Assembly: GCA_964428335.1 (NCBI GenBank)
Contig: CAYRXW010000003.1
Span: forward strand, 150,368 to 214,367
DNA from: an uncultured Methanosarcinales archaeon
GTDB taxonomy: Archaea; Nanobdellota; Nanobdellia; Woesearchaeales; GW2011-AR15
Direction: 5' to 3'
Length of the DNA: 64,000 bases
A program made the position numbers and the translations under genes. Each line of letters begins with the position of its first letter. The first letter of the stretch is position 1. The notes beneath the pieces were generated by a model. The model worked only from the letters and a program-made list of their open reading frames with translations, ran no database searches and was not told the DNA's origin. Shown here in pieces: positions 1-16,590 of the stretch.

Positions 1-2727
1 GCAAACCTAGAAAAGGTAACAATAAATGAAAACTATGCAAAGCAGGTTTCAGATTACCTGATAAGATGCCAGTTCATGTTTGAAGACAATGGGAAGGATA
101 AAACAAGATGCTATGAAATGAATGTTGAAACAGGACAGGTAAAAATAAGTGAGACTGAAATAAAGAAAGCACTGGATGAAATAAGAAAAGAGGGTTATAT
201 AAATGAGCCTGGGGACTGCGATGAGCTATGCATTGACAGGGCAAGATGGCTAAAGGGATTATGGAGGCTAAAATTTGAAGATAATGTTATAGAGCCAAAT
301 ACTCCTTTATACATGTGCGAACAGGATACACTGATAGGAGAGACAATATACCTTTCAAGAAAAGAGCAGCATAATGCATGCAAAACTGCAGCCAATACTG
401 AACATAAGCTAGGGATGAGAGTAAAAGATTTCTACATGGAGCAAAAATACGGAAACATGGACAATGTTAACAGGTTTATTCACGGATACAGGCCAAGCAT
501 ACTTTACTATGAAGTTGCTGATGAATCAATAACTGAAGATTTTGAACAGGGTTTATATGAATGGGACTGGGATGAAGTAATATTATGGGAAACTGTCTTT
601 TTTGCATTTGATTTCATGCCAGGGGGAAGCGAGATACTGGAGTTTGTCGGAAAAGCAGTAGGGAAAAATGTTGCTAAAGGAGCAGAGAAAGAAGCTGCTA
701 AGGAATGGATAAAACCATGGATAAAAAAGTTTGTTGAAAACATACCTTTAGGAAAAGATTTTATTGAAACTTTAAGAGGAATCAGAGATTCATTCAGGAC
801 ATTCAATGATTTTTTGGATGAATTGTTCTTGAAATTAAGGCTTGCACCATATAATGCCCTTCTATCAGTTATAGATAGTAAAATAGGTAAAGCTTCAGCA
901 GATAACTTATTAAGACAATATGGGCAGGAATTCTTCGAGAAAAGATTATTTATCAATAATGCAGGTGTTGATTTAATTGAACCTTTTACAAAAAGTCTTG
1001 GCTCAGATTTAACAAGTGAAGTAAAAAATGCTGCAAAGGAAAGCCTGCAGAAAAAATACAGCCAAATACTTGAGGAAGAATTAAAAAATGTTCTAGGCAG
1101 CTCTGAAACAAGAGTACTAACAAAGCAAGAAACTGATATAATCTATTCTAGGCTAAATAGCAGAATTGCAGATTTAAAATCATCTTTGACTGGAATATTA
1201 CCTGAAGAAAAATTAATTTCAATATCTAGCTCAACTTTTATGAATATTAATAAACCTATTTCCGAAGGTCTTGAAGGCTTTTCAATGAGAGGATACAGGC
1301 AATATGTGAAAAGAAATTTAAGGATTATGGGAAGATTCTTAAATTATGTTCAAAGGCCGCTCACAGATCTTACAGATGAGGAAGCAAAAGTAGTTTTAAA
1401 GGAAATTATAGATGATAATCATAAAAGATTATTTAAGGATTTAAACCCAAGGGATACTTTAAGTTTTTTTAGAAAATACGGAACAGATCCTGAAGTTTTA
1501 GAAAAAGAATTTACTTCAAATTTAAATAATGAGGAGCTTGCTAATCTAAAAAAAGTTGCTGAGCAGTTTGGACCAGGTGTTCAAATGTATGATGATTTAG
1601 AAAGATATTACAGGAATAAGCTTAGAGGTGCAGACAGAAAAAGGACTCTTCTTTTAGCTGCTATGTGGATGGTAAGCGCTAAAATGGAAAGTGATTCAGA
1701 GATATTTCATCCTGTAGGCACAAATGCCTTTGGATATAAAAATGCAATCAGTACTCCTGTAATATTTGACGATTCAATGAGAAAGTTCTGGAACTATGAA
1801 TCAGATGAAAGCAAGTATGAAGATTTCTTCAAGCACTATGGAAACAGTAAGCTGGAAGTAGTGGATGAAAAGACAAAAAACACTGAAGAAGAAGAGGATA
1901 CAATCTCTGTTTACGAGACAGAAGCATACCAGGGAAATATTCCAGAACTTTACAATTATTTTGTCGCACTTGAGAAAGACAATAAAGAGATGAATATTTT
2001 TGACCAAAAGCCTGAAAGATTTTATTTAATTGCTCCATGTAAGGCAGATTTGGATGTAAAAATAACACATGTTGAATGCTATGGCAAGCCTTCTCCTGAC
2101 ATTGATGAGACAAGCCTTATTAACAGCTTTTTAGGGAGATACCCAACTTATGAATCAGGAGAAACAAACCCTATTACAGGGGAATTTGTAGAATTTTATG
2201 ATGGGACAAATAAGATGCTTTACAGCCTAGATGATAACGGAGAACCTGTAAAACACTGTTATAACAATGCATGGGCAAAGTTTACCTCTGGTGTTGATAT
2301 AACTGATGGGACAATAAATCCTTTTGAAGAAACCTATTCACCGGTTACAATTACAGTAAATCCTTCGTTAGACAGAGATAAAGTGCCAAATTATTGCTAT
2401 GCTGGTTATGATGGAAAAGAAGCAGTCATCTGGGCGACTTTGAATGTAGGTTTCCCGCTTTTAGGAACTGTTGGCGGAGGGCTTACATGCTCAGCAGTAA
2501 CAGCAGTCGCTACAGGAGGAGCAGGTGTTGCCGCTGCTCCTATATGCCTTGCTGCAGGAAATTTGGCAGGAGGCATTATAGGCGGGCTTATATATGAAGG
2601 ATTGGAAGCAGGATATATGGGTGGAAGGATACACTGGCCTTTCCACACCCAGTCATATAATGACAGGAGTACAGCAGGAATAGTTACAGATGTTTTGGAT
2701 GGAAAAGAAAATGAACAAGGCCCTTAA
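1..2727 (+). CDS. Large hypothetical protein, 5'-partial (reading frame open to window start). C-terminal Gly/Ala-rich hydrophobic glycine-zipper-like segment.
   Basis: Frame 1 is open from nt 1 through the annotated ATG at 76, so the gene probably begins upstream of the window. C-terminus GGGLTCSAVTAVATGGAGVAAAPICLAAGNLAGGIIGGLIY is glycine-zipper/TM-like. No recognisable catalytic motif. Confidence 0.45.
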   Translation, partial: ANLEKVTINENYAKQVSDYLIRCQFMFEDNGKDKTRCYEMNVETGQVKISETEIKKALDEIRKEGYINEPGDCDELCIDRARWLKGLWRLKFEDNVIEPNTPLYMCEQDTLIGETIYLSRKEQHNACKTAANTEHKLGMRVKDFYMEQKYGNMDNVNRFIHGYRPSILYYEVADESITEDFEQGLYEWDWDEVILWETVFFAFDFMPGGSEILEFVGKAVGKNVAKGAEKEAAKEWIKPWIKKFVENIPLGKDFIETLRGIRDSFRTFNDFLDELFLKLRLAPYNALLSVIDSKIGKASADNLLRQYGQEFFEKRLFINNAGVDLIEPFTKSLGSDLTSEVKNAAKESLQKKYSQILEEELKNVLGSSETRVLTKQETDIIYSRLNSRIADLKSSLTGILPEEKLISISSSTFMNINKPISEGLEGFSMRGYRQYVKRNLRIMGRFLNYVQRPLTDLTDEEAKVVLKEIIDDNHKRLFKDLNPRDTLSFFRKYGTDPEVLEKEFTSNLNNEELANLKKVAEQFGPGVQMYDDLERYYRNKLRGADRKRTLLLAAMWMVSAKMESDSEIFHPVGTNAFGYKNAISTPVIFDDSMRKFWNYESDESKYEDFFKHYGNSKLEVVDEKTKNTEEEEDTISVYETEAYQGNIPELYNYFVALEKDNKEMNIFDQKPERFYLIAPCKADLDVKITHVECYGKPSPDIDETSLINSFLGRYPTYESGETNPITGEFVEFYDGTNKMLYSLDDNGEPVKHCYNNAWAKFTSGVDITDGTINPFEETYSPVTITVNPSLDRDKVPNYCYAGYDGKEAVIWATLNVGFPLLGTVGGGLTCSAVTAVATGGAGVAAAPICLAAGNLAGGIIGGLIYEGLEAGYMGGRIHWPFHTQSYNDRSTAGIVTDVLDGKENEQGP

Positions 2728-3367
2728 GATAACACTGATTGCACTTTCTGTAATAGTTTTGCTAGTTTTAGTTCTGTTCCTTTATGACAATATAAAACCA
2801 AAGGTCTACACTTCAAATTATTACTCAGAAGAACCTGAAAAATGGGTTGAGGAAACTCCATATGATAACATTGAGGATAATTACGCTGTAAATGTCCAGA
2901 AAGCCACAAGGGGAAAAGGAAGCTTTGAAACATATAAACTTGAATACATGGATAGTGGTGTCAATACAATATTCTTGAGAGGGTTTTACAACGGGACAGC
3001 ATTCACTTTCAGGATAAATAACACAATAAGCCTGGATAATGAATTAATACCCAATGATGGCATCCCTGAAGGATTTATACTAATGAAAAAAGAGGAAGAA
3101 AAATTTAATTTCTATATCTATATTGATGAGGACTGGAAAAAAAAAATCAAAACAAACATCCTTTGGTCAGACGATTTTGAAAAAGGGATAAGCGAAAAGC
3201 AGTTTGATTTTTCAGGCGGGAAAAACGGGATATATATTGAAAAAATTGAAAATCTGGAATGGTTCAAGAAGAGTCCAAGAACCGGTGGAATCTATGTTGG
3301 AGACTTAACAAAGGATAACTATAAGACACAGAATGTAAGCGGGAAGACTTTCATGTATGCAAGGTGA
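2711..3367 (+). CDS. Membrane-anchored hypothetical protein (N-terminal signal anchor)
   Basis: Internal start MNKALKITLIALSVIVLLVLVLFLY is more plausible than the ORF-track start at 2690. Single N-terminal TM. No known motif. Confidence 0.45.
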   Translation: MNKALKITLIALSVIVLLVLVLFLYDNIKPKVYTSNYYSEEPEKWVEETPYDNIEDNYAVNVQKATRGKGSFETYKLEYMDSGVNTIFLRGFYNGTAFTFRINNTISLDNELIPNDGIPEGFILMKKEEEKFNFYIYIDEDWKKKIKTNILWSDDFEKGISEKQFDFSGGKNGIYIEKIENLEWFKKSPRTGGIYVGDLTKDNYKTQNVSGKTFMYAR

Positions 3368-3370
3368 TTA

Positions 3371-3670
3371 TTGATGAATAAAAAAGGGATGGAACTTGAA
3401 TATGTTGTAAAAGCCATATTGGCTTTGCTTGTGCTGGCTGTAATTGCAGGCCTTCTGTATTTCTTTGTTGTAAAAAAAGCAGGAGGAGGAATAGGCACTG
3501 TGACTGACACAACAACAGAAGAAGGGGACGGTGTTTTAGATAAGCTAAGGGATTTACTTGGGAATTCATGTGATAATGGCGCAACTAAATGCAGCCTTTC
3601 AGGCAAAGAGATGACATGCGAAGACGGCAAATGGGTTATTGGGGAGGATCCTTGTGAATCGGAAAGCTGA
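3371..3670 (+). CDS. Small type-IV-pilin-like protein (class III signal peptide) with Cys-rich C-terminus
   Basis: N-terminus MMNKKG/MELEYVVKAILALLVLAVIAGLL has a short basic leader, Gly at -1, acidic residues just after the putative cleavage site, then a ~20-aa hydrophobic helix. Confidence 0.45.
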   Translation: MMNKKGMELEYVVKAILALLVLAVIAGLLYFFVVKKAGGGIGTVTDTTTEEGDGVLDKLRDLLGNSCDNGATKCSLSGKEMTCEDGKWVIGEDPCESES

Positions 3671-4115
3671 GGAGATTGCAGGTAAGGTGCTTGTTGAAAT
3701 ATTGATTTTTGTAATCATATTTTTTGTTGCACTCCAGATAGGCTCAAAAGTATGGCAGCTCTACATATCAAAGCCGCAGGAAGTTACAGCAAGCTCCATG
3801 TATCTTCTGCAGAAGCACATAAAATATTTTGATGGGACACCAGATACGTTTGCATTACAGGTACATAAAAAGCATACGATTGAAGGTTTTGATGCAGATT
3901 CAGGCAATAAACCAGGTTCATGCGAAGGAAGCTGCATATGCATGTGCAATGGCGAATGCTGTCCTGATAATGAATGCAGCAAAGTCATAAAATGCGTTGA
4001 AGCATTTGATTCAAAAGGGGAAAGTGTAGGATTAAGTTATCCTTTCCTTGTTACTTCAACAGAACCAAAGAATTACCTATTGACAGAATCAGACGATAAG
4101 CTTGTTATAGAATGA
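3639..4115 (+). CDS. Pilin-like protein with Cys-rich C-terminal domain
   Basis: N-terminus RKAEEIAG/KVLVEILIFVIIFFVAL has Glu at +5 after Gly and a hydrophobic helix. CxC-rich tail (CEGSCICMCNGECCPDNEC). Start codon uncertain; overlaps the previous ORF. Confidence 0.4.
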   Translation: MGRILVNRKAEEIAGKVLVEILIFVIIFFVALQIGSKVWQLYISKPQEVTASSMYLLQKHIKYFDGTPDTFALQVHKKHTIEGFDADSGNKPGSCEGSCICMCNGECCPDNECSKVIKCVEAFDSKGESVGLSYPFLVTSTEPKNYLLTESDDKLVIE

Positions 4116-4555
4116 ATAAAAGAGGGGAATTGGAAGTAGAACTTATCTTTTTTATAGACTTAATCATACTTGTAGCTGTTTTCATCGCATTCCTTAATGG
4201 CATAATTGCAGTAGGCCAGAATACGGATTTTAAGATGAAATTTTCTGCAAAAAATGCAGCACTTATGGCAGATTCTGTTGCAACTTCCCCTTATCCGATG
4301 CATCTTTACTATAATGAAAATACTTATGGATATGATTTTTCATTCAAGAAAGAATATGTCGAAGTGATTGATAACTTCCAGAAAGCAACATATCCATATA
4401 TTCCAGACATAAACAAGCAGTTTGAGGAAAAAACAATCTACCCTATTGAGATTGAAGACAAGGAAACTGAGAAGACAACGCCAATAGTTTTTGTATCAGA
4501 CAGAAAGAACCTTGGTTTCATTGCAGCGATACCTTCAGGTGAGAAAAGTGAATAA
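4112..4555 (+). CDS. Pilin-like protein (class III signal peptide)
   Basis: MNKRG/ELEVELIFFIDLIILVAVFIAFL is a basic leader followed by G, then E at +1/+3/+5 and a hydrophobic helix. Start overlaps the upstream gene by 4 nt (operon). Confidence 0.45.
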   Translation: MNKRGELEVELIFFIDLIILVAVFIAFLNGIIAVGQNTDFKMKFSAKNAALMADSVATSPYPMHLYYNENTYGYDFSFKKEYVEVIDNFQKATYPYIPDINKQFEEKTIYPIEIEDKETEKTTPIVFVSDRKNLGFIAAIPSGEKSE

Positions 4556-4565
4556 AAAAGCCCAG

Positions 4566-5045
4566 ATGTTCAAGGCTTTCTGGTACTATATGATAAGGGT
4601 GCCTATAATCATTTTATTATTTGGGCTTTTCATGTATTTCTCAGGAGGTCTCCAGAACCAGGCTCTTGCCAGCCCGAATGTAAGGGAAAAAATAATAGTG
4701 AACAGGCTTTTTTTCTCAGCAAACTCGATTTCTTATGTTGATGAAACTATAGGGAAAGTCTACCCCGGCATAATAGACATTGAAAAATTTGAAAACAATG
4801 TTCTGGATGCATCATTTTTTACAAGGGAAAACAAAGCAGCTGCTGCGAAACTTGACCTGATCAATCTTGACACAAACGAAACAAAGGAAGCCTACATCAA
4901 TAAGGACCTTTATGACAGGTGGAAAAATTATGTGAAATTTGAGCAGTACAGCAGCGTGAAAGACCAGTTTTATGTACTGATAAAAGACGGAGATAATCAG
5001 TACAGCGGATTATTAAAAGTAAACGTGTTGATGCATAATGGGTAG
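4566..5045 (+). CDS. Membrane protein, possible minor pilin-like
   Basis: An internal Met start (MFKAFWYYMIRVPIIILLFGLFMYF) avoids overlap with the upstream gene. N-terminal TM helix. Confidence 0.4.
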   Translation: MFKAFWYYMIRVPIIILLFGLFMYFSGGLQNQALASPNVREKIIVNRLFFSANSISYVDETIGKVYPGIIDIEKFENNVLDASFFTRENKAAAAKLDLINLDTNETKEAYINKDLYDRWKNYVKFEQYSSVKDQFYVLIKDGDNQYSGLLKVNVLMHNG

Positions 5046-5460
5046 AGGGTTTTTTTTGTTAAGCTATTATGACCTTGTTGCAATGATACTTCTGATACTA
5101 ATAGTCCCATTCTGGATAATGGTATTAAAGTCCCCTGGCAACAGGTCTGCAGAGATAACAGAAGAAATAACCTATATTGAAGATGACTTGATTCTTATTA
5201 ACATACTAAAAACCAGGCATGAAAATAAGCTTATACTTGATTATGTGATTGAAAAAGATGAGACAATTAAAGAAAATATCCAGCAGATACTTGAAAAAAG
5301 CTATGGGAAAGTATGCTTTGAACTAAAACTGAATAATGAGATATTCATAAAGGAAAAATGCAATATATTCCAGAAAGACGATGTCCTCAGGTCAAGCGTT
5401 TTAGTCCCTTCTGAAACACCAATAAAAATAGAATTAACCTTACCGGGGTACAGGGAATGA
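5038..5460 (+). CDS. Pilin-like/membrane protein
   Basis: MGRG/FFLLSYYDLVAMILLILIVPFWIMVL has a short leader and a hydrophobic helix with Asp. Confidence 0.4.
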   Translation: MGRGFFLLSYYDLVAMILLILIVPFWIMVLKSPGNRSAEITEEITYIEDDLILINILKTRHENKLILDYVIEKDETIKENIQQILEKSYGKVCFELKLNNEIFIKEKCNIFQKDDVLRSSVLVPSETPIKIELTLPGYRE

Positions 5461-6602
5461 AAGGAAACATACTTATGATTGGCCTTGTAGTTGTTTTCTT
5501 CCTTGTCGTGCTTGTAGGGCTTTATATACAGGTGACAAATAAGGCAAATGATTTTGAGGAAGCAATAGGAAGCCACCAGTCAAAGGTCCTGAATGCATAT
5601 AAAGATGGAGAAAAAGCCCTCTTTTTCATAGAGCTTGCAGGCAGGAATTCTTTTTATGAATCCTTTGAAAAACTAGATACAGAATGCGGAAATTATGAGG
5701 GAGTGCCTCTGTTAAATTCCGAAAGCAAAAGTTGCATGAATGAGATATTTGAAGCGACAGTTGATGGAACAAACAAAAAAACAGAAAAGTTCACAGAACA
5801 AATGCCAAAAATTGATTATGACATAAAAATAGGTGACAAAGGAATATTTTTTTTCGCAAAGAATTCCCTGAGAATGGACATTGGCGGAAAATATAATTTT
5901 GAAATTTCAAAAGCACCAGAATTCAAGAAAACAGAGCCTGAAACTCCGGAACCATCAGTGCCAATAGAAGAGCCCATTGAGAGTCCTGTCCAGCCACCTA
6001 CAACGCCTGTTCAGGGTGGAAGCGGAGGCAAATGTGGATTTATTGCAGATTATGCAAAGCAGTATGTTGCTGCACAATGTCCTTATTCCCTTAGCCTAAT
6101 TTATGGCGCAACTCCACAGACATGCCACGAGAAACCTTTGACATGTGCAACTTTTGTAGCTTCATTATATTACTATACTTTTGGTGAATGGATATATGGC
6201 AATGGAAATACAAAATGTACAGATGGAAAGGTTGTTCCTATGGGAAATAATCCAAACAGCCTTGCTTTCATTAACAAAAACACAGGAAAATCAATTTCAA
6301 CATCGCTTCAGCCAGGAGATATATTCCAGGCTGACCTTATCTCATCAAGAACCGGCCAGCCTACTGCATGGGGACACACAGGAATCTATGTTGGCAGGGG
6401 ATACCTAGACTTAGGTTCATATGATGGTCCATATTGTTTCAGGAGCTATAAGCCGGATGAAAAAGGCAACCTTATATTTGCGCATTCTTACGGATGGCAG
6501 GACTATGGGCAGCCAGGTGTATGTTTTTCAGATTATAAGAACCTATTTGGTGGCGGACAGATAATACCGACAAACTTCTGCAGGTACAGGGGATGCGCAT
6601 GA
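5457..6602 (+). CDS. Pilin-like N-terminus fused to an NlpC/P60-CHAP superfamily (papain-fold) cysteine peptidase domain
   Basis: N-terminus MKG/NILMIGLVVVFFLVVLVGLYI. C-terminal domain has Cys in LTCATFVASLYYYTF and the downstream motif QPGDIFQADLISS...WGHTGIYVGRG, which matches the NlpC/P60 pattern (PGD...hH.GIY.G). Confidence 0.55.
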   Translation: MKGNILMIGLVVVFFLVVLVGLYIQVTNKANDFEEAIGSHQSKVLNAYKDGEKALFFIELAGRNSFYESFEKLDTECGNYEGVPLLNSESKSCMNEIFEATVDGTNKKTEKFTEQMPKIDYDIKIGDKGIFFFAKNSLRMDIGGKYNFEISKAPEFKKTEPETPEPSVPIEEPIESPVQPPTTPVQGGSGGKCGFIADYAKQYVAAQCPYSLSLIYGATPQTCHEKPLTCATFVASLYYYTFGEWIYGNGNTKCTDGKVVPMGNNPNSLAFINKNTGKSISTSLQPGDIFQADLISSRTGQPTAWGHTGIYVGRGYLDLGSYDGPYCFRSYKPDEKGNLIFAHSYGWQDYGQPGVCFSDYKNLFGGGQIIPTNFCRYRGCA

Positions 6603-9600
6603 AAAAAATAATTATACTTTTTTTCCTGCTTCTGCCATTTGCGCATGCTGAACTGCTTGTAAACTTTGGTGAAAGAATAAGTTCAATAGACCAGATTGAG
6701 AAATCCACTTATTATTATGAGTACTACCTAAGCAGTCCACAGGAATCAGAGTATATTTTTGTATTTCATTATAATGATGAAAAAATCAATAAAAATTCTA
6801 CAAACAGCATGTTCATACTTACAGATATAGATGCAAGCCGGCTTTATAGGATAGACTTACTGAAAAATAACGAGCTTAGGGATTCGGTGCTCACTAACTT
6901 CTGCAACCATGATTCAATATGTGAAAACAACCTTACAAAAGGGATATTTGAAAATGAGCTTACATGTTCAGACTGTGAAAAAAGCGCTAAAGATAACTTC
7001 TGCAATATTGAAGATGATGATATCTGCGACCCTGACTGCATAGGATATAATTATGATGAATTTCCTGGAACGTGCCTTGAAGATTATTTCAGGGCAAATG
7101 AATGCTCAAACTACTGCAGTGAAAATGAGATATGCACATCTGATGTTTTTGTATCAGAATTGGGGTTATGCTGTACAGGAGAATGTGTAAAGAACACTGA
7201 AGATTTTTGCGGGGAATACCTTAATGGGACAATATGCATGGGAAATGAAGCATGTAGCGGGCAGGAAGTTGTTTTCGGGACAGAAGGGAAAACATGCTGC
7301 TACGGAGGAACCTGTGAAGAAGATGAAAATGTTGATTACTATAATATAACTTTGATCAATGATACAGCGGAAACAAAGAACCTAAACATTTATTTTATCA
7401 TTGGGATATTTGCATCCCTTGTAATACTTGTCATCGGGCTTCACTATAAGAACCTGAATATTGTGATTGCATCCAGCCTTTTTTTCATACTTATGCTTAG
7501 CTTTCTTCTTTTGGACGCAAGGAATATAATTACAGGAAAGGCAACCTCCAATACCTTGACACAGGAAGAAATAAACCTCATCATGACCACCCCTTCAGTA
7601 TTCAATTACGGGGGGCAAAGTAATACAAACTTATTTTTGGCATTAAAAAGCATTTCATCAGAATTCAGGAAAAGGAATGTCGAATTTTCCGAGAATCTTA
7701 TGATTGCAACAATAACAACGATGGAGAAGGAAGTGGGTGGGTATGGTTTTTTACCAGTAGAAGAATATGGAGACTATTGTGCAGGACCAACTTCAAAATT
7801 TACTATTGCAGGAAAACACAGGAAAACGCCTTATGATGGAGGATGTGACTACAAAGGAAGAGGGTACATGCAGGTAACTCACTATAGCGGATATCTGAAA
7901 TACTGTGGTCCTGATTGTGTTACAAGAAGTACAGCAGGAAACATACTGGATGAATGCAAATGCAAAGGACTTGCATATTGCTCAGTAAAGGACGAAGCAA
8001 AGTGTCCACCAAATAAAGCACTTAGACCTGAATATGCAGGAAGAATTTTTTCTAATTTTTACATTGGAAAAGGATTACTTGGTCTTGTGGATTCAAAAAA
8101 CTATGTTGAAATAGGTACAAGAATTAACGGCGTTAAGTCTTATGGTATTGATTTTGAGAAAAAAGCTAATGCTAAACATAGTTCATATAATAAAGACCAG
8201 GTAAGAAAACTGCTTGCATATTTTAATCAGAGAAGCATTACAACTCCAAGTGCTCCAACTACACCAACAACTCCAAGCACAGGAACAACTGGAGAAGAAC
8301 CTGTTTCAGTAGATACAACTGTCACAACAGATGTCGCTGATGAGATAATTTCAGGGGATAAGCTTGGATATTATTACTTAAATCCTTCATTCAAAATTGA
8401 GACAGAGCTTTCTTTCATTCCAACTTTGGTTGAGGAAGCAAAAGATTATGAAACATTGAAATCAACACTGGAAAAATATGATAAGGAGGAATTATGGATA
8501 ATCGGCGGATGCGGTGAAATAAAGAAAATTGATGAAGAATCAACAAAATTCATTTTCTGCGTTGATGACGGTGTTAAGAAGATAGAATTTGCACTTGACC
8601 TGGAAGGGAAGATTGAACCAAAGATTACTGAAGCAGAACGGCAGGAAACAGCAGAAGCAGGAACAGGGACACAGACAGAAACAGGAACGCAAACAGAGAC
8701 AAACAGCCAAGAAGAGACAGAAGAAGAAATAACAGAAGGGTTTTCTCAATTATTTTCAGGAATACAATATGGGAAATTTTCAGCAGCAGGACCAATTGTA
8801 TATCATGTCACAAAGATTGATCTGAGGAACCAAAATATAAGGTTTTTAGTGACACCGCAAAACCAGCTTGGGCAACCTACTTCTTCGTTTTTCGCTGCAA
8901 ACAGGCCACAGGTTGCAATTAACGGAGACGAATTCAGGACACTTGGAAGCCCTAAAGGTGTTGCTGTTTCAAACGGGAATGTTTATTCTTCATCAGCAGA
9001 GACAGGAGAACAGACAGTATTTATTTCAACAAAGAACGAAGTAAGCATAGGGAACAAGATTCCACAGGGGACATTAAATGCTGTATCTGGCTCACACGTG
9101 TTCTTAGAGAATGGAGTAGTTCCTGAAAGGATTAGATCATGCTCAAAAATCCCATATTGCAATGATATGCATCCAAGGACTTCAATAGGGGTAAGCCAGG
9201 ATGGAAATACCATGATAATAATCACAGTTGATGGCAGGAGAAGCGACTATAGCATAGGAATCAAGCTCCATAGCAACAATCCATCAGATTTGACCTTGGC
9301 AGAACTTCATCTTGCATTTGGTTCATACAACGCAATAAATCTTGATGGGGGAGGTTCAACAACTCTTGTCATGGAAGGAAAAGGGACAGTAAATAACCCA
9401 ACAGATCCACCTGAAGAATACCTTAATGATGCAGCAAAGAAAGCAGAGCTTATCTACTATGACGGCTTTTTGGTGCACCCAAACAAAAATATATTCAGGG
9501 AGAGGTATGTCTCAAACCATCTTGGGATTTATGCAGCAAAAGTAGCAGCAGCACCTGAAAAAACAAATCAGGAAAGCTGCCTAAGCGATGACATGGATAT

Positions 9601-10174
9601 TGTGCTTTTTGGAGACAGCATTACAGAAGGCCATGCAACATATGGGAACAAGGCATTAAGTTCAGAATTTAACAGTAGGATTTCAAAAGATGTAACCATG
9701 TTTTATACAACAGGACTGGGAGGAAAGAGAGCAGATAGCCCAGAATCAATTGATTCATACAATAAGTTCATCCTTCCAAAAAAGCCTGATATTGTGCTTT
9801 TATGGTTCGGAATGAATTCACATGGTTTTGAAGCGTCGCATAAAACCCAGTATATAAATTATATTAATGACATGAAAAAAAAAGGGATAATCCCTGTAAT
9901 CCTTACGACTTCACCTGCATGCGATGCGCTTACAGAAAAAGACATATCTTATCTTGAGGATATCCAGGCAATAAATAAGGATCTGGCGAAGACAGCAGGA
10001 GTTTACCTGATTGATGTCAAAACCAAGCTTGAAAACGAGATGAATGGCAAGTGTAAAGACTATTTCATGGATGCATATCATATGAACCCACAGGCACATT
10101 CAATAGTTGCAAAAATAGTTGTTGACCAGTTCAGTGCATGGAAAAAGGCAAAAACAGGACCTTATTCCTGCTGA
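6593..10174 (+). CDS. Giant multi-domain membrane-anchored hydrolase: Cys-rich N-terminal region, 2 TM helices, GH19-chitinase/lysozyme-like domain, Thr/Pro linker, phosphodiester-glycosidase (NAGPA/DUF2233-like) domain, C-terminal SGNH/GDSL hydrolase
   Basis: Signal peptide MRMKKIIILFFLLLPFAHA. GH19 signature: EKEVGGYGF...GDYCAG...YKGRGYMQVTHYSGY (compare HETTGG and YYGRGPIQLSWNYNY). NAGPA-like: VAINGDEF...INLDGGGSTTLV. SGNH: VLFGDSITEG ... DAYHMNPQAH. Confidence 0.65.
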   Translation: MRMKKIIILFFLLLPFAHAELLVNFGERISSIDQIEKSTYYYEYYLSSPQESEYIFVFHYNDEKINKNSTNSMFILTDIDASRLYRIDLLKNNELRDSVLTNFCNHDSICENNLTKGIFENELTCSDCEKSAKDNFCNIEDDDICDPDCIGYNYDEFPGTCLEDYFRANECSNYCSENEICTSDVFVSELGLCCTGECVKNTEDFCGEYLNGTICMGNEACSGQEVVFGTEGKTCCYGGTCEEDENVDYYNITLINDTAETKNLNIYFIIGIFASLVILVIGLHYKNLNIVIASSLFFILMLSFLLLDARNIITGKATSNTLTQEEINLIMTTPSVFNYGGQSNTNLFLALKSISSEFRKRNVEFSENLMIATITTMEKEVGGYGFLPVEEYGDYCAGPTSKFTIAGKHRKTPYDGGCDYKGRGYMQVTHYSGYLKYCGPDCVTRSTAGNILDECKCKGLAYCSVKDEAKCPPNKALRPEYAGRIFSNFYIGKGLLGLVDSKNYVEIGTRINGVKSYGIDFEKKANAKHSSYNKDQVRKLLAYFNQRSITTPSAPTTPTTPSTGTTGEEPVSVDTTVTTDVADEIISGDKLGYYYLNPSFKIETELSFIPTLVEEAKDYETLKSTLEKYDKEELWIIGGCGEIKKIDEESTKFIFCVDDGVKKIEFALDLEGKIEPKITEAERQETAEAGTGTQTETGTQTETNSQEETEEEITEGFSQLFSGIQYGKFSAAGPIVYHVTKIDLRNQNIRFLVTPQNQLGQPTSSFFAANRPQVAINGDEFRTLGSPKGVAVSNGNVYSSSAETGEQTVFISTKNEVSIGNKIPQGTLNAVSGSHVFLENGVVPERIRSCSKIPYCNDMHPRTSIGVSQDGNTMIIITVDGRRSDYSIGIKLHSNNPSDLTLAELHLAFGSYNAINLDGGGSTTLVMEGKGTVNNPTDPPEEYLNDAAKKAELIYYDGFLVHPNKNIFRERYVSNHLGIYAAKVAAAPEKTNQESCLSDDMDIVLFGDSITEGHATYGNKALSSEFNSRISKDVTMFYTTGLGGKRADSPESIDSYNKFILPKKPDIVLLWFGMNSHGFEASHKTQYINYINDMKKKGIIPVILTTSPACDALTEKDISYLEDIQAINKDLAKTAGVYLIDVKTKLENEMNGKCKDYFMDAYHMNPQAHSIVAKIVVDQFSAWKKAKTGPYSC

Positions 10175-10246: not shown

Positions 10247-11356
10247 ATGGGGTGTTATAACTTGATAAAGATACCAAAAGAAATGCTTATTGAAAAGATA
10301 AAAGAGAAAGGGCTTACTGAAGCGCAGATAAAATCCAAAGTTAAGGATAAACTAGACCAGCTTTCAGGCCTGATTTCAGAGGAAGGGGCTCTACATATAA
10401 TTGCCAATGAGCTTGGAGTGAAGGTCATGGATGAAGGCAAGCTGAAACTGAAGAATGTGCTTTCAGGCATGAGAAGCCTTGACATCACGGCTAAAGTCCT
10501 TAAGATATATGAAGTAAGGGAATTCAACAAGGGAGATAAGAAAGGAAAGGTAGGAAATTTCCTGATAGGCGATGAGACAGGGGTTATGAGAGTAGTTGCC
10601 TGGAATGACAAAGCTGATTTACTTACCAGCTTAAAGGAAGGGACAACAGTAAAGGTTACAGCTGCTTATACAAAGGATAACCAGGGGAAGACTGAGATAC
10701 ACCTTGGAGACAAGTCACAGGTCACTATAAGCGATGAGGAGATAAAGGTTGCCAGCAAGGAAAATGTAAGGAAGAATATCTCAGATTTAAAGGAAAATGA
10801 TGATAATGTTGAAATCATGGGAACAATTGTCCAGGTTTTTGACCCAAGGTTCTGGCCAACTGATCCAACAACAGGAAAAAAGGCTGTTGAAAAAGAAGGG
10901 GAATATTTCTATGAAGACAAGCCAATAACGCCTGATTTTTCATATGTGACAAACATCTTCCTGGATGATGGCACAGAGAACATAAGGGTAGTATTATGGA
11001 AAGCCCAGACAGAAAAACTTTTTGAGATGACCCATGAAGAGATAAAATCAAAAAGGATTGCCGGGTTTGAAGACAAGAAAAATGATCTTTTGGGAAAGAT
11101 AGTGAAATTTTCAGGAAAGACAAGCAAGAACCAGATGTTTGATAGGCTTGAATTCATTGCACAGAATGTTGATATGAACCCAAATCCAGAAGAAGAGATT
11201 GAAAGGCTAAAGGCAATGGAAGCAAAGGAATCAAAGGAAGAAAAAAAGGAAGAGAAAGAAGAAGAGCTTCCAAAGCCAAAAGAGAAAAAACCTGATGTTA
11301 AAACATCTGATGAACTAAATATAGATGATATAGAAGGATTAGAGGATTTGGAATAA
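10247..11356 (+). CDS. rpa: Replication protein A-like ssDNA-binding protein (OB-fold) with KE-rich acidic C-terminal tail
   Basis: N-terminal region (LSGLISEEGALHIIANELGV) is typical of archaeal RPA. Repeated OB-fold-like segments (GKVGNFLIGDETG.MRVVAWND; ENIRVVLWKAQ). Acidic C-terminus DDIEGLEDLE. Confidence 0.75.
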   Translation: MGCYNLIKIPKEMLIEKIKEKGLTEAQIKSKVKDKLDQLSGLISEEGALHIIANELGVKVMDEGKLKLKNVLSGMRSLDITAKVLKIYEVREFNKGDKKGKVGNFLIGDETGVMRVVAWNDKADLLTSLKEGTTVKVTAAYTKDNQGKTEIHLGDKSQVTISDEEIKVASKENVRKNISDLKENDDNVEIMGTIVQVFDPRFWPTDPTTGKKAVEKEGEYFYEDKPITPDFSYVTNIFLDDGTENIRVVLWKAQTEKLFEMTHEEIKSKRIAGFEDKKNDLLGKIVKFSGKTSKNQMFDRLEFIAQNVDMNPNPEEEIERLKAMEAKESKEEKKEEKEEELPKPKEKKPDVKTSDELNIDDIEGLEDLE

Positions 11357-11358
11357 TC

Positions 11359-11910
11359 CTAAACTAACATTTCCTGATATTTCTTTCCTTTTTTTAACAT
11401 TGCAGGCCTTTTATATCCTATAGGATTTGAATAATATAACTGAGGGAAATGGTTGTATTTTTCATTAGGGATTATAATGTTTTTTTCCAGTATAGAAAGA
11501 GTTACTTTAGAATCATCTTTTCCATGGCTTCCTATAGTAAAATCACTACTTACTGAAGAAACCAAAATCCTGGATATATCATCTTTTGGAATGTTTTTAT
11601 CAATTATATCCAATGCTTCAATTAAGGAAGTTCTGGCAATATAGAATTCAACATGGCTTGGCTTATAGCCAAATTTGCTAAAAAAAGCAAGGTCACCAGA
11701 TTTTTTAAATTCATCATGCACAAATATCCCAAACCTATCAAACAATTCATAAGTATGCAGAAAAGGCAGATTTATTCCTGCTTCATTTAATATGAAATTC
11801 ACATAGCCTGAACATGAAAATCCTTCAGTTGCATTTCCGGGTTTTTCTTTTGAGTATCTTTTGCAGGGATAGTTTAGATATTTGAGAGCTATAGGGATTA
11901 ATTGGGACAT
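11359..11910 (-). CDS. NlpC/P60 family cysteine peptidase-like protein
   Basis: EGFSCSGYVNFILNEAG matches the D/E-CSG-h-V catalytic Cys motif. Later His in KPSHVEFYIA. Confidence 0.5.
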   Translation of the reverse strand: MSQLIPIALKYLNYPCKRYSKEKPGNATEGFSCSGYVNFILNEAGINLPFLHTYELFDRFGIFVHDEFKKSGDLAFFSKFGYKPSHVEFYIARTSLIEALDIIDKNIPKDDISRILVSSVSSDFTIGSHGKDDSKVTLSILEKNIIIPNEKYNHFPQLYYSNPIGYKRPAMLKKGKKYQEMLV

Positions 11911-12061
11911 GCAGGTGAAATGAAGATTGAGGTTTAAGAAGGGTTTGACATAAAATATGATTGGAGGTAGATGACAGGAGAGTGGACGTATGACGCAGGA
12001 GCAATTTTAGTTGCGCATGTAAATCATAAAAAACATAAAGAAAGCCTAAATACTATTTAAT

Positions 12062-13042
12062 ATGCAGAGTATTATGAATTACATTAAAAATCCAGTAAGA
12101 CAAGGAGTATACAAAGCTAAAATACACTTTAAGTCAAAAGAATTACTTCTAAGTTTCATCAATTTTCAGAAAAATTGCAGAAAAAAATTTGAGGAACTAA
12201 AAAAGAAGCCAACAATAGGTTTTTACCAAGCAGGGATGTATGAAGAGTATCTAAAAAAAGAAAAATATGAAAACTGGTTATTAGAATCCATATTAGATAA
12301 TTTATTTATGCTTTTAAAGTTTAATAAGGAAGGTGTTTCTAAAGAACTTGAAAATGAATATAATAAGATTTGGCAAGATCTTGAAACAGGTAACTCAGCT
12401 TATTGCAATTTTGGAGATGATAATTACCTTTTAAAATTCAATGATGCCTTTTCAACAGAAATTAAACAACTTGAAACAAAGGATTTTATATTTTTTATAT
12501 ATTCTATAAAAGAATCAACTTTATTGAGTTTTGTAAATATAATAACTCTTGCTTTTGGCGAATCATCATTTAAACTTATTTACCAAATAAATAGTCATGT
12601 AAAAGAAGATGTAATATTTCCTTATATATCTGCAGTTTTTCTATGTTTAGATAATAAATCAGAGTTTATTGAAGATTATTTGATTAATGATTTAGAGGAA
12701 ATTAAAAACAACTATGGACTTGGTTTTTATAGAATGAGCATTCTGTTTATAGGTATTATCTTAGAAGAGATATTAGCTAGAACCTATGAAAATATATTGA
12801 ATGAGGAAGTTCCAAAGGATGCAGGAATTGGATTTTTAATTAAAGCCTTATTTGAAAAAAAAGAGAAAAAATTAGATATACCCAAAGACATCTATTCTAA
12901 TTTATATGATGATGCAAGAGAACTTAGAAATAGCGCAGTTCATCGAGGTAAAAAAGATTTTTCAAGATATGACGTAAAAATAATGTTAAAAGGAGTATTT
13001 AGGCTATACTTATTTTTAAAAGAGAATCAAGTGCGCAACTAA
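12062..13042 (+). CDS. Hypothetical protein with a C-terminal Rx4H (HEPN-type) motif; sits in an AT-richer island
   Basis: C-terminal ~110 aa are helical and carry LYDDARELRNSAVHRGKKDF, which fits the HEPN RN-x3-H motif. Codon usage is markedly more AT-rich than the flanking radA/RPA. Confidence 0.45.
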   Translation: MQSIMNYIKNPVRQGVYKAKIHFKSKELLLSFINFQKNCRKKFEELKKKPTIGFYQAGMYEEYLKKEKYENWLLESILDNLFMLLKFNKEGVSKELENEYNKIWQDLETGNSAYCNFGDDNYLLKFNDAFSTEIKQLETKDFIFFIYSIKESTLLSFVNIITLAFGESSFKLIYQINSHVKEDVIFPYISAVFLCLDNKSEFIEDYLINDLEEIKNNYGLGFYRMSILFIGIILEEILARTYENILNEEVPKDAGIGFLIKALFEKKEKKLDIPKDIYSNLYDDARELRNSAVHRGKKDFSRYDVKIMLKGVFRLYLFLKENQVRN

Positions 13043-13133
13043 AATTGTTGAACATAACGATTCGTCGGGCAGACGACGTGGGAAGACAATTTCTTAAATC
13101 CAAATATTTTAACGAATAGTAAGCCTATAAATT

Positions 13134-13835
13134 TTAATTATTGAGCCATTTACTATAAGCTAACTTATCAATTAATAAGTGAATTGTTGGTGGCCTATTA
13201 TCCCAAGTAATTTTTAAAACATTAGCGTGTTCGACAACCAATAAATTTTCATATTCATCATCAATAATTATTTTATCAATAGTATACTCTCTAAAAGTTA
13301 CACGATCTTCAATAGTCTTTGTTGAATAGAATGCAAAATTCAGAAACATAACAATTAATAGAATATAAAAAAACTCGTTACCTAGACCAGAATTAAATAC
13401 ACCTACACCGGCGACTATTGACAAAAAACCCAACACAAAATTTATAACAGTGAAAGCGGACTTGATTTTTTTTTGTTCCTGCAAAATATTGAGATTTCTT
13501 AATTTTTTATTGTAATCATGCCTAAGTTTTATCGCACGAACTTTTTCATTTAAGTTAGATAACATTTCTACAAAAACCATATGTCTCTTTATTTCGCTAT
13601 TGTCTTGAATATTGTCGCTGTAACCAAAACTGTTTTTATCAATTTTAACAATTTGCTTGCCCTTTAAATTCTTTAGTTTAAGTGTCTTGGTGTCATAAAA
13701 CACATATTTTGGAACAATTTTGGCACTTTTGTCGTTTATTATAACTAAATCACCCATAAGGCAATAGTCTTTGCCTATTTTATGTATAAGATTTTTATGA
13801 GATATAATTTCCAAGCCTTTGATAATTACAGTCAT
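13134..13835 (-). CDS. Hypothetical two-TM membrane protein (island gene)
   Basis: Central hydrophobic pair FTVINFVLGFLSIVAGVGVF / FFYILLIVMFLNFAFY. No known motif. Confidence 0.4.
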   Translation of the reverse strand: MTVIIKGLEIISHKNLIHKIGKDYCLMGDLVIINDKSAKIVPKYVFYDTKTLKLKNLKGKQIVKIDKNSFGYSDNIQDNSEIKRHMVFVEMLSNLNEKVRAIKLRHDYNKKLRNLNILQEQKKIKSAFTVINFVLGFLSIVAGVGVFNSGLGNEFFYILLIVMFLNFAFYSTKTIEDRVTFREYTIDKIIIDDEYENLLVVEHANVLKITWDNRPPTIHLLIDKLAYSKWLNN

Positions 13836-13912
13836 AATAATTACATTATTTTAAAGTATATATTTTTTATTAAAAGTAGAAAACCTACGGTTTTCCACAC
13901 CTTTCCCTAAAT

Positions 13913-14953
13913 TCAAAATAATAAGAAATTATTCCTATATTTTTCAGCGAACAAATCAATTTCTCTATTAAGGATATTCAATTGTCTATCTAAATATTTA
14001 TAATTAATAATATAAATAAACCCTGGGTGAATATAGTTTAACCGAGATAATATTGATGACAATTTTTTATTTGAATCTATCTCAAGAAGTAACTTACTTT
14101 CTTCATTATTTAGTTTCAGAGGTCCAGTCTTATTAAGTTCATCATTAAATTTATTAAAATATTCAAAACCAACATTGTAAACAGCAACTGCTTCTTGATT
14201 ATTACATAGTTTTAGGGTATCGTTTTCTTTTTCTATTTCTTCTAAAGTAATATTTTCTTTTAAGGTATATAAATCAGCTGTTGTAACGATAATTGGAAGT
14301 GTCAATGTACTTAACAATGTGGAAAATTTTGGCTGTTTATATTTTAACAAATATAATACATCAAATAAACATAAATCTCTATAAAGTCGATGCGTTACAA
14401 TAGATCCACAAACAGTTTGAAAGATTGCTCGAATGATAGAATTTGGATTTGCACCCTTTTCAAATATCTCTATCCCTTTATTAACTTCAGGACATGATAA
14501 GATATTTTTTTGGAGCAATTTCAAATTTAAGTTATCATCCTTTTTTTTCTTATCTAAAAGTGATAAGACAGGCGATTCAAATTCTGACAAAATTAGATTT
14601 CCCCCAGAAAAATTTCTAAATCCACTAGGTTCTTCTGGAAACCTTATAAAAAACCAACTATGATTTTTGGTTTTATATTTACATTCAATCACAAGTTGGA
14701 TGCTCAACTCAAGTCTATCAATTAGTATTAGGTTTTTATCTGCATAGATATCTGTTGAAAATAACTTATTTTCCCGATTGTAATGGACTTCTCCTTCGTC
14801 ATTAAAACCAATATTTTGAATCTTTTTAACGACAGAAGATTCAAGAGGAATACCAGATTTCAAAACAAACTCTTTAAAAGATGGATTTACCATAAATTTA
14901 GAATAATTCCTTAATTTATAAAATAAGGCATGGTTTGTCATGCTAATTAACAA
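13913..14953 (-). CDS. Hypothetical protein with possible N-terminal PD-(D/E)xK nuclease-like motif (island gene)
   Basis: TDIYADKNLILIDRLELSIQLVIECKYK has the pattern hhhD ... 10-12 aa ... hhE-x-K characteristic of restriction-endonuclease-fold nucleases. This is speculative from the motif alone. Confidence 0.35.
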   Translation of the reverse strand: MLISMTNHALFYKLRNYSKFMVNPSFKEFVLKSGIPLESSVVKKIQNIGFNDEGEVHYNRENKLFSTDIYADKNLILIDRLELSIQLVIECKYKTKNHSWFFIRFPEEPSGFRNFSGGNLILSEFESPVLSLLDKKKKDDNLNLKLLQKNILSCPEVNKGIEIFEKGANPNSIIRAIFQTVCGSIVTHRLYRDLCLFDVLYLLKYKQPKFSTLLSTLTLPIIVTTADLYTLKENITLEEIEKENDTLKLCNNQEAVAVYNVGFEYFNKFNDELNKTGPLKLNNEESKLLLEIDSNKKLSSILSRLNYIHPGFIYIINYKYLDRQLNILNREIDLFAEKYRNNFLLF

Positions 14954-15204
14954 CTAACGACTACGAACTTGTCTCCCACAAGACGAGATATATTAATAGA
15001 TGTCGCTAACGCTCCTTAGATGTTGCCCAACGAGGTTATTCGGTGGAACAGTAGTTATCTCTAATTCACATTCTCCCACACTGGACACACTGGACATCCC
15101 TGCGTGAGATATTTAAAGGAAGTCAATTTATCATATCCTAACCTGTTTGAAAGAATAGGCCCTCCCGGTTCTGGGAACTAATAATTCCATAATATAAGGA
15201 ACCG

Positions 15205-15513
15205 TTGAAACAAGACCCGAAAGGAATGGAGGCATTAAAAATGCAAACAACAAAACAAACAAAAGAAATAAAGGCAAACACGCCTGAAAAAAAGTTTAGG
15301 GCAGGAACTATAACTGCTACAGTCTGGAAAAACCAGGCAGAAAAAAACGGAAAGGCGTTTGAATACCGCACCGTCTCATTTGAACGAAATTACACAGATG
15401 AGAAAGGTGAATGGAACACAACAAATTCTTTGAGGCTTAATGACTTACCTAAAGCATCATTGGTACTAACAAAAGCTTACGAATACCTTGCAATGAACGG
15501 AGTTGAAGAATAA
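15205..15513 (+). CDS. Small conserved protein, possibly PC4/YdbC-like ssDNA-binding; translationally coupled to radA
   Basis: Stop codon overlaps the radA ATG (TAATG). Core GTITATVWKN...EYRTVSFERNY.DEKGEWNTTNSLRLNDL resembles the PC4/YdbC pattern (W..E.R.W....KGITLS.EE). True start may be the internal Met at 15241. Confidence 0.4.
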   Translation: MKQDPKGMEALKMQTTKQTKEIKANTPEKKFRAGTITATVWKNQAEKNGKAFEYRTVSFERNYTDEKGEWNTTNSLRLNDLPKASLVLTKAYEYLAMNGVEE

Positions 15514-16496
15514 TGGCTAAAGAAAAAGAAACTAAGGAAACAAAAGAAGAAAACATGGAAAATGACGCAATGACTGTCATGGATTTACCAGGAGTAGGAC
15601 CTGCAACAGCAGAAAAACTTGCAATTGCAGGCTATGAGGATTTAATGGCAATAGCTGTCGCAACACCAGGGGAGCTTATAGATGCTTCAGGTGTAACAGA
15701 TGCAACAGCAAAAAAGATAATTGCCGCAGCAAGGGCTGCAATGAGGATGGGCTTTGAATCAGGGATAGATATCCTGAAAAAAAGGCAGAATGTGATGAAA
15801 ATACCTCTTGGTTCGAAAGCATTAAATGAGCTTTTGGGAGGAGGATTTGAATCAGGTGCCATAACCGAGGCATTTGGGGAATTTGGGTCAGGAAAGACCC
15901 AGATTGCGCATTCATTGGCTGTTGAGATACAGAAAATGGATCCTGATGCTTTCGCAGTATTCATCGATACTGAAAACACCTTCAGGCCAGAAAGGATTGT
16001 AGAACTTGCAAAAGGCGCTGGCCTTGACCCTGAAAAAGTTCTTGGAAATATAAAAGTTGCAAGGGCATTTAATTCAGACCACCAGATGCTTTTGGCTGAA
16101 AAGATAAACGACCTGATAACAAAACAGGGCATAAAAGTCAAAGTTGTTGTCGTTGATTCATTGACAGCGCATTTCAGGGCAGAATTCATCGGCCGTGGAA
16201 CATTGGCAGAAAGGCAGCAGAAGCTAAACAAGCACATGCACGAACTTATGAAAGTTGCAGACACACATAATATTGTTGTCTATGTGACAAACCAAGTAAT
16301 GTCAAAGCCTGATGTGTTCTTTGGGGACCCAACCCAGGCAATAGGAGGCCATGTTGTAGCGCATGCATCAACATTTAGGCTATACCTAAGGAAGAGTAAG
16401 AAGAATTCAAGGGTTGCAAAACTTATTGATTCTCCAAACCTGCCAGACGGCGAGGCTGCTTTCATTGTAGAAACGCCAGGAATAAAAGATATTTAA
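15513..16496 (+). CDS. radA: DNA repair and recombination protein RadA
   Basis: N-terminal HhH (LPGVGPATAEKLAIAGY). Walker A GEFGSGKTQIAH. Walker B VVVVDSLTAHFR. Full RecA/Rad51 core of 327 aa. Confidence 0.95.
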   Translation: MAKEKETKETKEENMENDAMTVMDLPGVGPATAEKLAIAGYEDLMAIAVATPGELIDASGVTDATAKKIIAAARAAMRMGFESGIDILKKRQNVMKIPLGSKALNELLGGGFESGAITEAFGEFGSGKTQIAHSLAVEIQKMDPDAFAVFIDTENTFRPERIVELAKGAGLDPEKVLGNIKVARAFNSDHQMLLAEKINDLITKQGIKVKVVVVDSLTAHFRAEFIGRGTLAERQQKLNKHMHELMKVADTHNIVVYVTNQVMSKPDVFFGDPTQAIGGHVVAHASTFRLYLRKSKKNSRVAKLIDSPNLPDGEAAFIVETPGIKDI

Positions 16497-16497
16497 T

Positions 16498-16520: not shown

Positions 16521-16590
16521 CTACCATATATTTAAATACTAAATTACTTTTTCCAAGCCTTAAATAAAATAAATATAGGTGTAAATAAAT

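Follow-up and report, generated by a model that had tools for sequence, protein, structure and literature searches.

Proteins in which a pilin-like N-terminus carries a functional cargo have been described in bacteria as well as in archaea. In the bacterial modular type IV pilins, such as PilB and PilC of S. sanguinis, the N-terminus is of the class III type and belongs to a small module, to which a linker and an exchangeable functional module are joined, and one class of these proteins bears a peptidase module (Raynaud et al. 2021, PMC8179133). In archaea, class III signal peptides have recently been shown to be widespread on substrate-binding proteins, which are presumed to be inserted in a type IV filament-like structure (bioRxiv 10.64898/2026.04.22.720090). 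Moreover, large extracellular murein lytic-transglycosylase proteins are known from Pacearchaeota and Woesearchaeota, and two studies have taken them to indicate bacterial hosts or predation (Castelle et al. 2021, PMC8204110; Vigneron et al. 2022, PMC9723730). Here we describe a 64-kb stretch of contig CAYRXW010000003.1 (the window, numbered from its first letter) in which the last of six pilin-like genes, gene 6, encodes a membrane-linked, presumably exported peptidase of the C40 type within a conserved multi-gene cluster of surface proteins. This part of the finding is solid; delivery of the peptidase on a pilus is a hypothesis.

The gene 6 protein resembles the bacterial modular pilins in its layout, with a small N-module that has a class III-type N-terminus, a linker, and an exchangeable functional module of which many architectures occur per carrier. 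In contrast to them, it has no detectable pilin fold, an acidic residue near position +5 (within +1 to +8) is rare in its family (18/120), and the cargo is almost exclusively murein hydrolase, whereas the bacterial proteins have a prepilin motif with Glu5 (IPR012902), a proven pilin fold and proven cleavage; the archaeal protein lacks that motif, the modular architecture itself being present. The protein shares with the archaeal class III-type binding proteins its basic leader, the small residue at -1 and the hydrophobic helix, but differs in that its cargo is a lytic enzyme and that it is encoded in a cluster of ~15 pilin-like genes, not beside an ATP-binding cassette transporter. With regard to its cargo, the protein is comparable to the NlpC/P60 peptidases (C40, PF00877, clan CA), including CwlO, MepS/Spr, SagA and Acd24020, in having a papain-like fold with the Cys at the N-terminus of a helix and a His and a third polar residue on adjacent strands, and the motifs xxC(S/A)xFV and GHxGIYxG can be aligned. 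Unlike them, its C-terminal module (C-module) is too divergent for Pfam, has extra conserved non-catalytic Cys and a C-terminal FCRxxxC tail, and comes from an archaeal host. Some giant proteins contain both the C-module and canonical NlpC/P60 domains, so that the C-module forms a separate subfamily. The large lytic proteins of Pacearchaeota and Woesearchaeota come from the same lineages and have the same presumed murein target, and both the product of the gene next to gene 6 (6593-10174) and the giant proteins with a C-module are of this kind; those two studies describe single large proteins, and the passages searched mention no conserved pilin-like cluster, carrier module or C40-type member. 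A search of the open-access literature found no earlier account of this cluster, its carrier module or any hydrolase cargo borne by class III-type archaeal proteins. What is new here is the conservation of the cluster, the carrier N-module, its repeated fusion to murein hydrolases, and the statistics of Gly, Ala and Ser at the N-terminal site.

The gene 6 protein consists of three parts, an N-terminal helix with a family-specific globular module, a Pro-rich linker and the C40 domain, which lie in the window as follows. A slash marks the boundary between leader and hydrophobic stretch, and pLDDT is the predicted local distance difference test score.

5457-5912, + strand: gene 6, carrier N-module, residues 1-152, MKG/NILMIGLVVVFFLVVLVGL (AlphaFold2 model)
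5913-6020, + strand: gene 6, Pro/Glu/Thr-rich flexible linker, residues 153-188 (pLDDT 33-40)
6021-6602, + strand: gene 6, predicted divergent NlpC/P60 (C40) domain, residues 189-381 (Foldseek; profile against the PDB)
6144-6146, + strand: codon of Cys230 (LTCATFV), predicted nucleophile
6375-6377, + strand: codon of His307 (WGHTGIYVG), predicted general base
6483-6485, + strand: codon of His343 (IFAHS), predicted third residue of the triad

The assignment of the C-terminal domain draws on its predicted structure and on sequence comparison. In the AlphaFold model (pLDDT 80-92 for residues 190-381), Cys230 is the first residue of helix 230-242, His307 starts strand 307-317 and His343 lies in strand 338-346, the two His strands being adjacent. 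The Foldseek matches at ranks 1-6 in the PDB are all NlpC/P60 murein peptidases (Acd24020, MepS, MepS-NlpI, SagA; probability 0.99-1.0, template-modelling score 0.58-0.68), with Tse1/Tae1 and bleomycin hydrolase at lower ranks. When a profile of 27 diverse C-modules was compared with the PDB, CwlO was found at E=9.2e-5, together with Trichomonas NlpC_A, a lysin, Acd24020, Spr/MepS, RipC, the CHAP domain of LysK, and LytE; among the matches listed (E up to 1), 15 of 18 are cysteine peptidases of the NlpC/P60/CHAP type or lysins, and the rest are weak (2if6 YiiX 0.5, thermolysin 0.81). In the alignment with CwlO, ltCatFv falls on fDCSSFV and GHtGiYvGkG on GHVGIYLGNG. Cys230 and His307 are invariant in the sets of 11 and 27 sequences, and His343 is kept in at least 90% of them. 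A papain-fold domain with this very Cys (LTCATFV) and His (WGHTGIYVG) had been proposed in an earlier, sequence-only reading of the window, and is now borne out by the structural match and by the invariance of the pair in homologues. As modelled, the domain is a divergent member of the NlpC/P60 (C40) superfamily with the predicted triad Cys230-His307-His343. The non-catalytic Cys are conserved as well: Cys254 is invariant, and those at 193, 208, 223, 375 and 380 are kept in 90% or more of the homologues, which suggests disulfides and an extracellular location of the gene 6 protein.

Two sequence motifs (IGxxQ and GEKxLFxI), the conserved pair Cys77/Cys93 and a sheet of four strands characterize the N-module. 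Its AlphaFold2 model, built from 74 sequences, has a pLDDT of 90.7 and places a membrane helix at residues 3-31, then a break, then the globular part. The linker of 36 residues, for which the low pLDDT given above comes from the full-length model, varies in both length and sequence among homologues. An exhaustive profile search returned 1479 proteins at E<=0.001, in which the two halves of the protein match separately; the N-module (residues ~1-170) is N-terminal in 132/132 proteins, starting within the first 25 residues, and is found either alone (166-200 amino acids) or ahead of other domains.

A canonical NlpC/P60 protein is encoded in the window as well (11359-11910, - strand; 183 amino acids; PF00877, 7.6e-8). 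It lacks an obvious signal sequence, its gene immediately follows that of RPA, and this position is conserved in L007, a close relative. Compared by hhalign with this single sequence, the profile of the gene 6 family gave a probability of 0.1.

Gene 6 belongs to a row of six co-directional genes on the + strand, from 3374 to 6602, with overlaps of 4-17 nt. Their best-supported starts are 3374 (ATG), 3654 (GTG), 4112, 4539 (GTG), 5038 and 5457, chosen from the called genes of L007, a relative of 92% identity, and from the sequence around the starts. The six open reading frames are real: in six other loci, all of them have homologues that are arranged alike. From base 1 of the window onwards, frame 1 is open and covers the C-terminal 908 residues of a conserved protein of ~1020 amino acids, so the window edge cuts into the cluster, and the series continues past gene 6 to 10174, the next gene (6593-10174) overlapping gene 6 by 10 nt. 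Therefore, the sequence-only reading was right in taking six overlapping co-directional genes as one operon but not in its limits: the six are the 3' part of a larger conserved cluster that starts before the window, and the gene after them encodes a hydrolase of 1193 amino acids. In addition to gene 6, the cluster within the window contains the following.

1-2727, + strand: 3' part (908 codons) of the gene for the ~1020-amino-acid cluster protein; aligns with the L001 and L002 orthologues
2711-3367, + strand: 218-amino-acid single-pass membrane protein; orthologue N-termini MDKKILF and MKKKLLI
3374-3670, + strand: gene 1, 98 amino acids, MNKKG/MELEYVVKAILALLVLAV; small Cys-rich C-terminal knot
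3654-4115, + strand: gene 2, 153 amino acids, GTG start, VNRKA/EEIAGKVLVEILIFVIIFFVAL
4112-4555, + strand: gene 3, 147 amino acids, MNKRG/ELEVELIFFIDLIILVAVF
4539-5045, + strand: gene 4, 168 amino acids, GTG start, VRKVNKKA/QMFKAFWYYMIRVPIIILLFGLF
5038-5460, + strand: gene 5, 140 amino acids, MGRG/FFLLSYYDLVAMILLILIV
6593-10174, + strand: 1193-amino-acid multi-domain hydrolase (Pfam NAGPA, GDSL_2)

Related loci were taken from contigs encoding homologues of gene 6, plus one locus of a GTDB genome; a contig scan with the large cluster protein as query led to one locus only. Together they reveal a translationally coupled cluster of ~15 genes whose order is kept in DPANN archaea of the Woesearchaeota and Pacearchaeota type (L001-L004, L007, L009, L010): up to eight further genes, including those of the small paralogues D and E, come first, followed by the ~1020-amino-acid protein, a protein of ~220 amino acids, genes 1-6 and the large multi-domain hydrolase, gene 6 being second-to-last. 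The RPA gene adjoins the cluster and RadA comes after it, both in the window (10247-17438) and in all long loci examined (L001, L004, L007, L009, L010), and TRAM and LigT genes after RPA/RadA are seen only in the window and in L010. This synteny with RPA/RadA is unusually stable for lineages whose proteins are only 20-40% identical. All named relatives of the studied proteins come from Candidatus Pacearchaeota or Woesearchaeota, and the window itself, of ~36% G+C, encodes RadA, an RPA-like protein, archaeal-type synthetases and enzymes of the mevalonate pathway. The cargo is variable even at fixed positions: in L009 and L010, M23/fn3 and glucosaminidase variants occupy the same last cluster position before RPA, and in L010 an Amidase_3 domain is found in the gene directly before the orthologues of genes 4 and 5, which by position alone is the slot of gene 3.

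Of the other cluster proteins, the one of ~1020 amino acids has a hydrophobic Gly-rich C-terminus and is without a Pfam or PDB match. Gene 1 is a paralogue of the small upstream proteins D and E of related loci (hhalign of the E group against gene 1: 93% probability over 70 columns); against CBM_19, gene 1 gives E=0.027 and its L003 orthologue 6.6e-5 (above the cut-off). The D proteins (L003 7866-8141, L007 2251-2520) are ~90 amino acids long, with the N-terminus KKAQ/SISINTIV and a Cys-rich tail, and are candidates for bulk subunits. They also have a marginal match to the plant defensin-like family PF25052 (8.4e-6, 26.4 bits at a cut-off of 25), which is probably an artefact of Cys pattern and signal peptide.

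In all six genes, [KR][GA] stands directly before a hydrophobic stretch of ~20 residues: KKG/MELEY in gene 1, RKA/EEIAGKVLVEILIF in gene 2, KRG/ELEVELIFF in gene 3, KKA/QMFKAFWYYMIRVPIIIL in gene 4, GRG/FFLLSYYDLV in gene 5 and MKG/NILMIGLVVV in gene 6. The sequence-only reading had described these N-termini as prepilin-like, with a hydrophobic helix after a basic leader, Gly at -1 and an acidic residue at about +5. The helix of ~20 residues is indeed present in all six; Gly at -1 holds for four genes, with Ala in its place in genes 2 and 4; and the acidic residue is exactly at +5 in gene 3 only, lies elsewhere within +1 to +11 in genes 1, 2 and 5, and is absent from genes 4 and 6. Substrates of archaeal prepilin peptidases are known to have Gly, Ala or Ser at -1, a charged residue at -2 and a hydrophobic domain after the site, with Glu5 in a subset only, and all six N-termini conform to this rule, the minimal one published for class III signal peptides of archaea (PMC4371748).

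Across 11 orthogroups of the cluster, [KR][GAS] is fixed at the boundary and the leader ranges from 3 to 24 residues in length; because the boundary stays fixed in orthologues while the leader varies, the site is not due to chance. Nor is it general to membrane proteins of these genomes, since the motif is not found in most orthologues of the ~1020-amino-acid and ~220-amino-acid membrane proteins of the same cluster: the larger one is without a conserved [KR][GAS] site, and the orthologues of the 218-amino-acid protein, which have no small residue at the boundary, serve as an internal negative control for the motif. For protein 6, 142 homologues with an N-terminal hydrophobic helix were drawn from a library clustered at 50% identity, and in 120 of them the last Lys or Arg is followed by Gly (57), Ala (45) or Ser (18), as compared with a background frequency of ~20% for the three residues together; of the exceptions, most are truncated gene calls or show [KR][GAS] closer to the N-terminus. 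In the upstream genes of the cluster, position +1 is often Gln, as is typical of EppA substrates. Because the small residue after basic residues is so strongly conserved, a class III signal peptidase site at the cluster N-termini is probable on sequence grounds. A signal-arrest-release (SAR) endolysin anchor was also considered for these N-termini and rejected, the helices being strongly hydrophobic (mean Kyte-Doolittle 2.2-3.3) and not Gly/Ala-rich.

Similar N-termini are seen elsewhere in the window. A second operon (40422-43613, + strand) comprises five pilin-like genes, of which the first encodes a protein (MNMKKRGQFSVEYIM...) with E=0.0014 against PF04021 (Class_IIIsignal), below the cut-off, and the fifth a Cohesin domain (PF00963, 3.4e-9); it is followed by a Cys-rich protein of 160 amino acids and then by a Cys-rich protein of 1551 amino acids with Laminin_G_3 (44141-48796). 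A protein of 489 amino acids (37430-38899, - strand), which has no Pfam match, starts with the basic-small-hydrophobic order (MKKSQ/ATISIIIGIVLLLVLFIML) and has a HEIAH zincin-like motif near its C-terminus; it is a candidate for a further enzyme with an N-terminus of the class III type.

The substrate can be approached through the company that the two modules of gene 6 keep. Among 77 proteins that have the N-module but not the C-module, a Pfam census found Peptidase_M23 in 11, VanY in 9, Peptidase_M15 in 8, SLT in 5, Peptidase_C39_2 in 5, and Amidase_2, Amidase_3 and NlpC/P60 in 3 each, with CHAP (1), glucosaminidase (1), 3D, M99 and phage lysozyme in one or two cases each. In relatives, the N-module is thus joined to nearly all known types of bacterial murein hydrolase. 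The C-module is also found in proteins of 1100-2100 amino acids with SLT, N-acetylmuramidase, canonical NlpC/P60 and M15 domains. The linkages on which such partner domains act, those of N-acetylmuramic acid (MurNAc) and of D-amino acids, belong to bacterial murein. Because the fused domains are specific to bacterial murein, peptidoglycan is favoured over pseudomurein, and bacterial peptidoglycan would most likely be the target of the gene 6 enzyme, as far as established enzyme specificities can be carried over. Pseudomurein, which the sequence-only reading had left as the other choice, is unlikely with a carrier that in relatives is fused to MurNAc-L-Ala amidases, D-Ala-D-Ala carboxypeptidases, M23, SLT and glucosaminidase domains.

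The 1193-amino-acid protein encoded next to gene 6 has a Cys-rich region, hydrophobic segments and an N-terminus that by eye looks like a Sec-type signal, and Pfam recognizes in it a NAGPA phosphodiester glycosidase (1e-25) and a GDSL_2 domain (GDSL/SGNH hydrolase; 2.8e-13). In its orthologues (L001 11131-13884, L002 11167-13773, L003 16716-19448) the Cys-rich N-terminal part and the hydrophobic segments are kept, and the catalytic domains are GH25 in L002 (7.4e-44), a weak SLT (0.0044) with GDSL in L001, and a weak SLT with GDSL in L003. A GH19-like middle part of the 1193-amino-acid protein, guessed from KGRGYMQVTHY, found no support.

These observations can be drawn together into a mechanism. 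The gene 6 protein would be exported, in keeping with its N-terminal helix and its conserved non-catalytic Cys, Cys77 and Cys93 included, and would cleave stem peptides or cross-links in bacterial peptidoglycan where the cell touches a bacterial host or prey, presumably acting with the 1193-amino-acid glycosidase/esterase encoded next to it and with the upstream pilin-like proteins. The class III site being probable, the N-terminal helices would most likely assemble into a structure like a type IV filament: after cleavage they would pack into a fibre or a short stalk, with the small paralogues (gene 1 and the upstream D and E proteins) as bulk subunits, and the hydrolase would hang from this fibre on its linker, as in the bacterial modular pilins and the archaeal bindosome proteins. 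The whole account, an exported C40 murein peptidase carried on a type-IV-filament-like fibre of cluster proteins, has in our estimate an even chance of being correct. In some DPANN archaea, type IV filament systems have been found by a census in 2026 (bioRxiv 10.64898/2026.04.22.720090). The cluster is a hint that bacteria are attacked by these archaea or serve them as food. A bolder and more tentative idea is that it represents a lineage-specific, type-IV-filament-derived 'wall-breaching' organelle of Woesearchaeota and Pacearchaeota, whose carrier would present interchangeable murein hydrolases to a bacterial cell; we consider this possible, with the odds rather against it.

A number of results weigh against the fibre-borne peptidase. 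On the enzyme side, the sequence-only reading had suggested comparison with PF00877 and PF05257, and the outcome was divided: the window protein has no match to the NlpC/P60 or CHAP models of Pfam at E<=1, the best values among 11 homologues (CHAP 3.7e-4, NLPC_P60 0.018) are both below the cut-off, and the full-length profile matches the PDB only partially, over the His motif, whereas the C-module profile finds CwlO. On the filament side, the strict FlaFind pattern, [KRDE][GA][ALIFQMVED][ILMVTAS]x3, is failed by all six proteins and by most of the second operon. The six proteins have no match at E<=1 to pilin or class III models (PF04021, PF07790, and the NCBIfam archaeal pilin N-terminal models), and the N-module model matched no pilin and no other fold when searched with Foldseek against the PDB and the predicted viral structures of BFVD. 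The hydrophobic helices of the cluster members are unlike one another, whereas the pilins of many single systems are alike, and the paralogy detected by hhalign is confined to the small proteins of the cluster. Genes for a pilus ATPase, a platform protein or a prepilin peptidase were not seen by eye among the open reading frames of the 64-kb window, and none is listed around the cluster in the six related loci, mostly over ~10 kb on each side (the L003 reading frames judged by eye). Moreover, type IV pilus components have been reported missing in DPANN genomes (bioRxiv 2020.05.14.094862).

Several of these points speak at the same time for the main rival, in which the N-termini are uncleaved type II signal-anchors and the cluster builds a membrane-bound surface complex, the C40 peptidase being tethered through helix and linker at a tight cell-cell contact. 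It would be compatible with the want of any pilin hidden Markov model or fold match, with the differing helices, with the filament assembly genes not seen in the window or beside the cluster in related loci, and with the preprint on DPANN without type IV pili, and it gains from the modelled break that sets the membrane helix at residues 3-31 off from the globular part. What it leaves unexplained is the very feature on which the fibre account is built, namely Gly, Ala or Ser in 120/142 homologues and in 11 orthogroups (not in two others), together with a leader that is free in length upstream of a fixed boundary; we therefore rate it as a possible reading, clearly behind the fibre account. A different role, rather than a different anchorage, is assumed if the hydrolases digest the wall debris of dead bacteria into amino acids and amino sugars for a metabolically poor cell, and no living partner is breached. 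According to one proposal, Pacearchaeota obtain amino acids from the peptidoglycan of dead bacteria (PMC11537232), and the fused enzymes span a complete breakdown of murein, carboxypeptidases and amidases included, but the enzymes are membrane-linked and lie inside a conserved surface cluster, not as free secreted enzymes beside transporters, and no uptake system is visible in the cluster, which makes scavenging improbable. Finally, the enzyme may be a self-directed autolysin that remodels the cell's own wall polymer for insertion of a surface structure or for division, like FlgJ, VirB1 and CwlO in bacteria, where specialised hydrolases are common within assembly clusters. CwlO, the closest solved relative by sequence profile, is itself an autolysin, but no genes of murein or pseudomurein synthesis were noticed by eye among the listed open reading frames of the 64-kb window, DPANN archaea are generally described as lacking such walls, and it is the D-amino-acid and MurNAc chemistry of bacteria for which the fused domains are specific, so that an autolysin is very unlikely.

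Woesearchaeota and Pacearchaeota are among the most widespread uncultured archaea. Murein-lytic enzymes, noted in these lineages before as single large proteins, belong to a conserved cluster of ~15 surface-protein genes, and one family-specific N-module has been combined repeatedly with different murein hydrolases, which provides a marker for finding such systems in metagenomes. The fibre account makes testable predictions about the catalytic residues, the cut site of the signal peptidase, the small proteins that would form the fibre, and a bacterial rather than archaeal wall as target. If the pilin reading is true, the idea of modular pilins would be extended to archaea and to lytic enzymes; if the cluster is a wall-breaching organelle, no host-attack apparatus of these archaea would have been defined before it, and it would show by direct molecular evidence that their hosts or prey are bacteria.

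Other features of the window lie outside the cluster. A region of ~3 kb (12000-15000) has a G+C content of 0.265 for 12001-14000, compared with ~0.36 for the window, and contains three genes without a significant Pfam match (the only hit being DUF4225, E=0.0017, below the cut-off), one of them with an RNSAVH motif (Rx4H, HEPN-like) by eye; the region has the look of an insertion, since the close relative L007 lacks it in the interval from the NlpC/P60 gene to RadA. Two large predicted surface proteins are encoded as well, one of 1196 amino acids with Ig-like repeats of the Big_9, PKD and He_PIG families (54429-58019, - strand) and one of 924 amino acids with no Pfam match (59469-62243, + strand).

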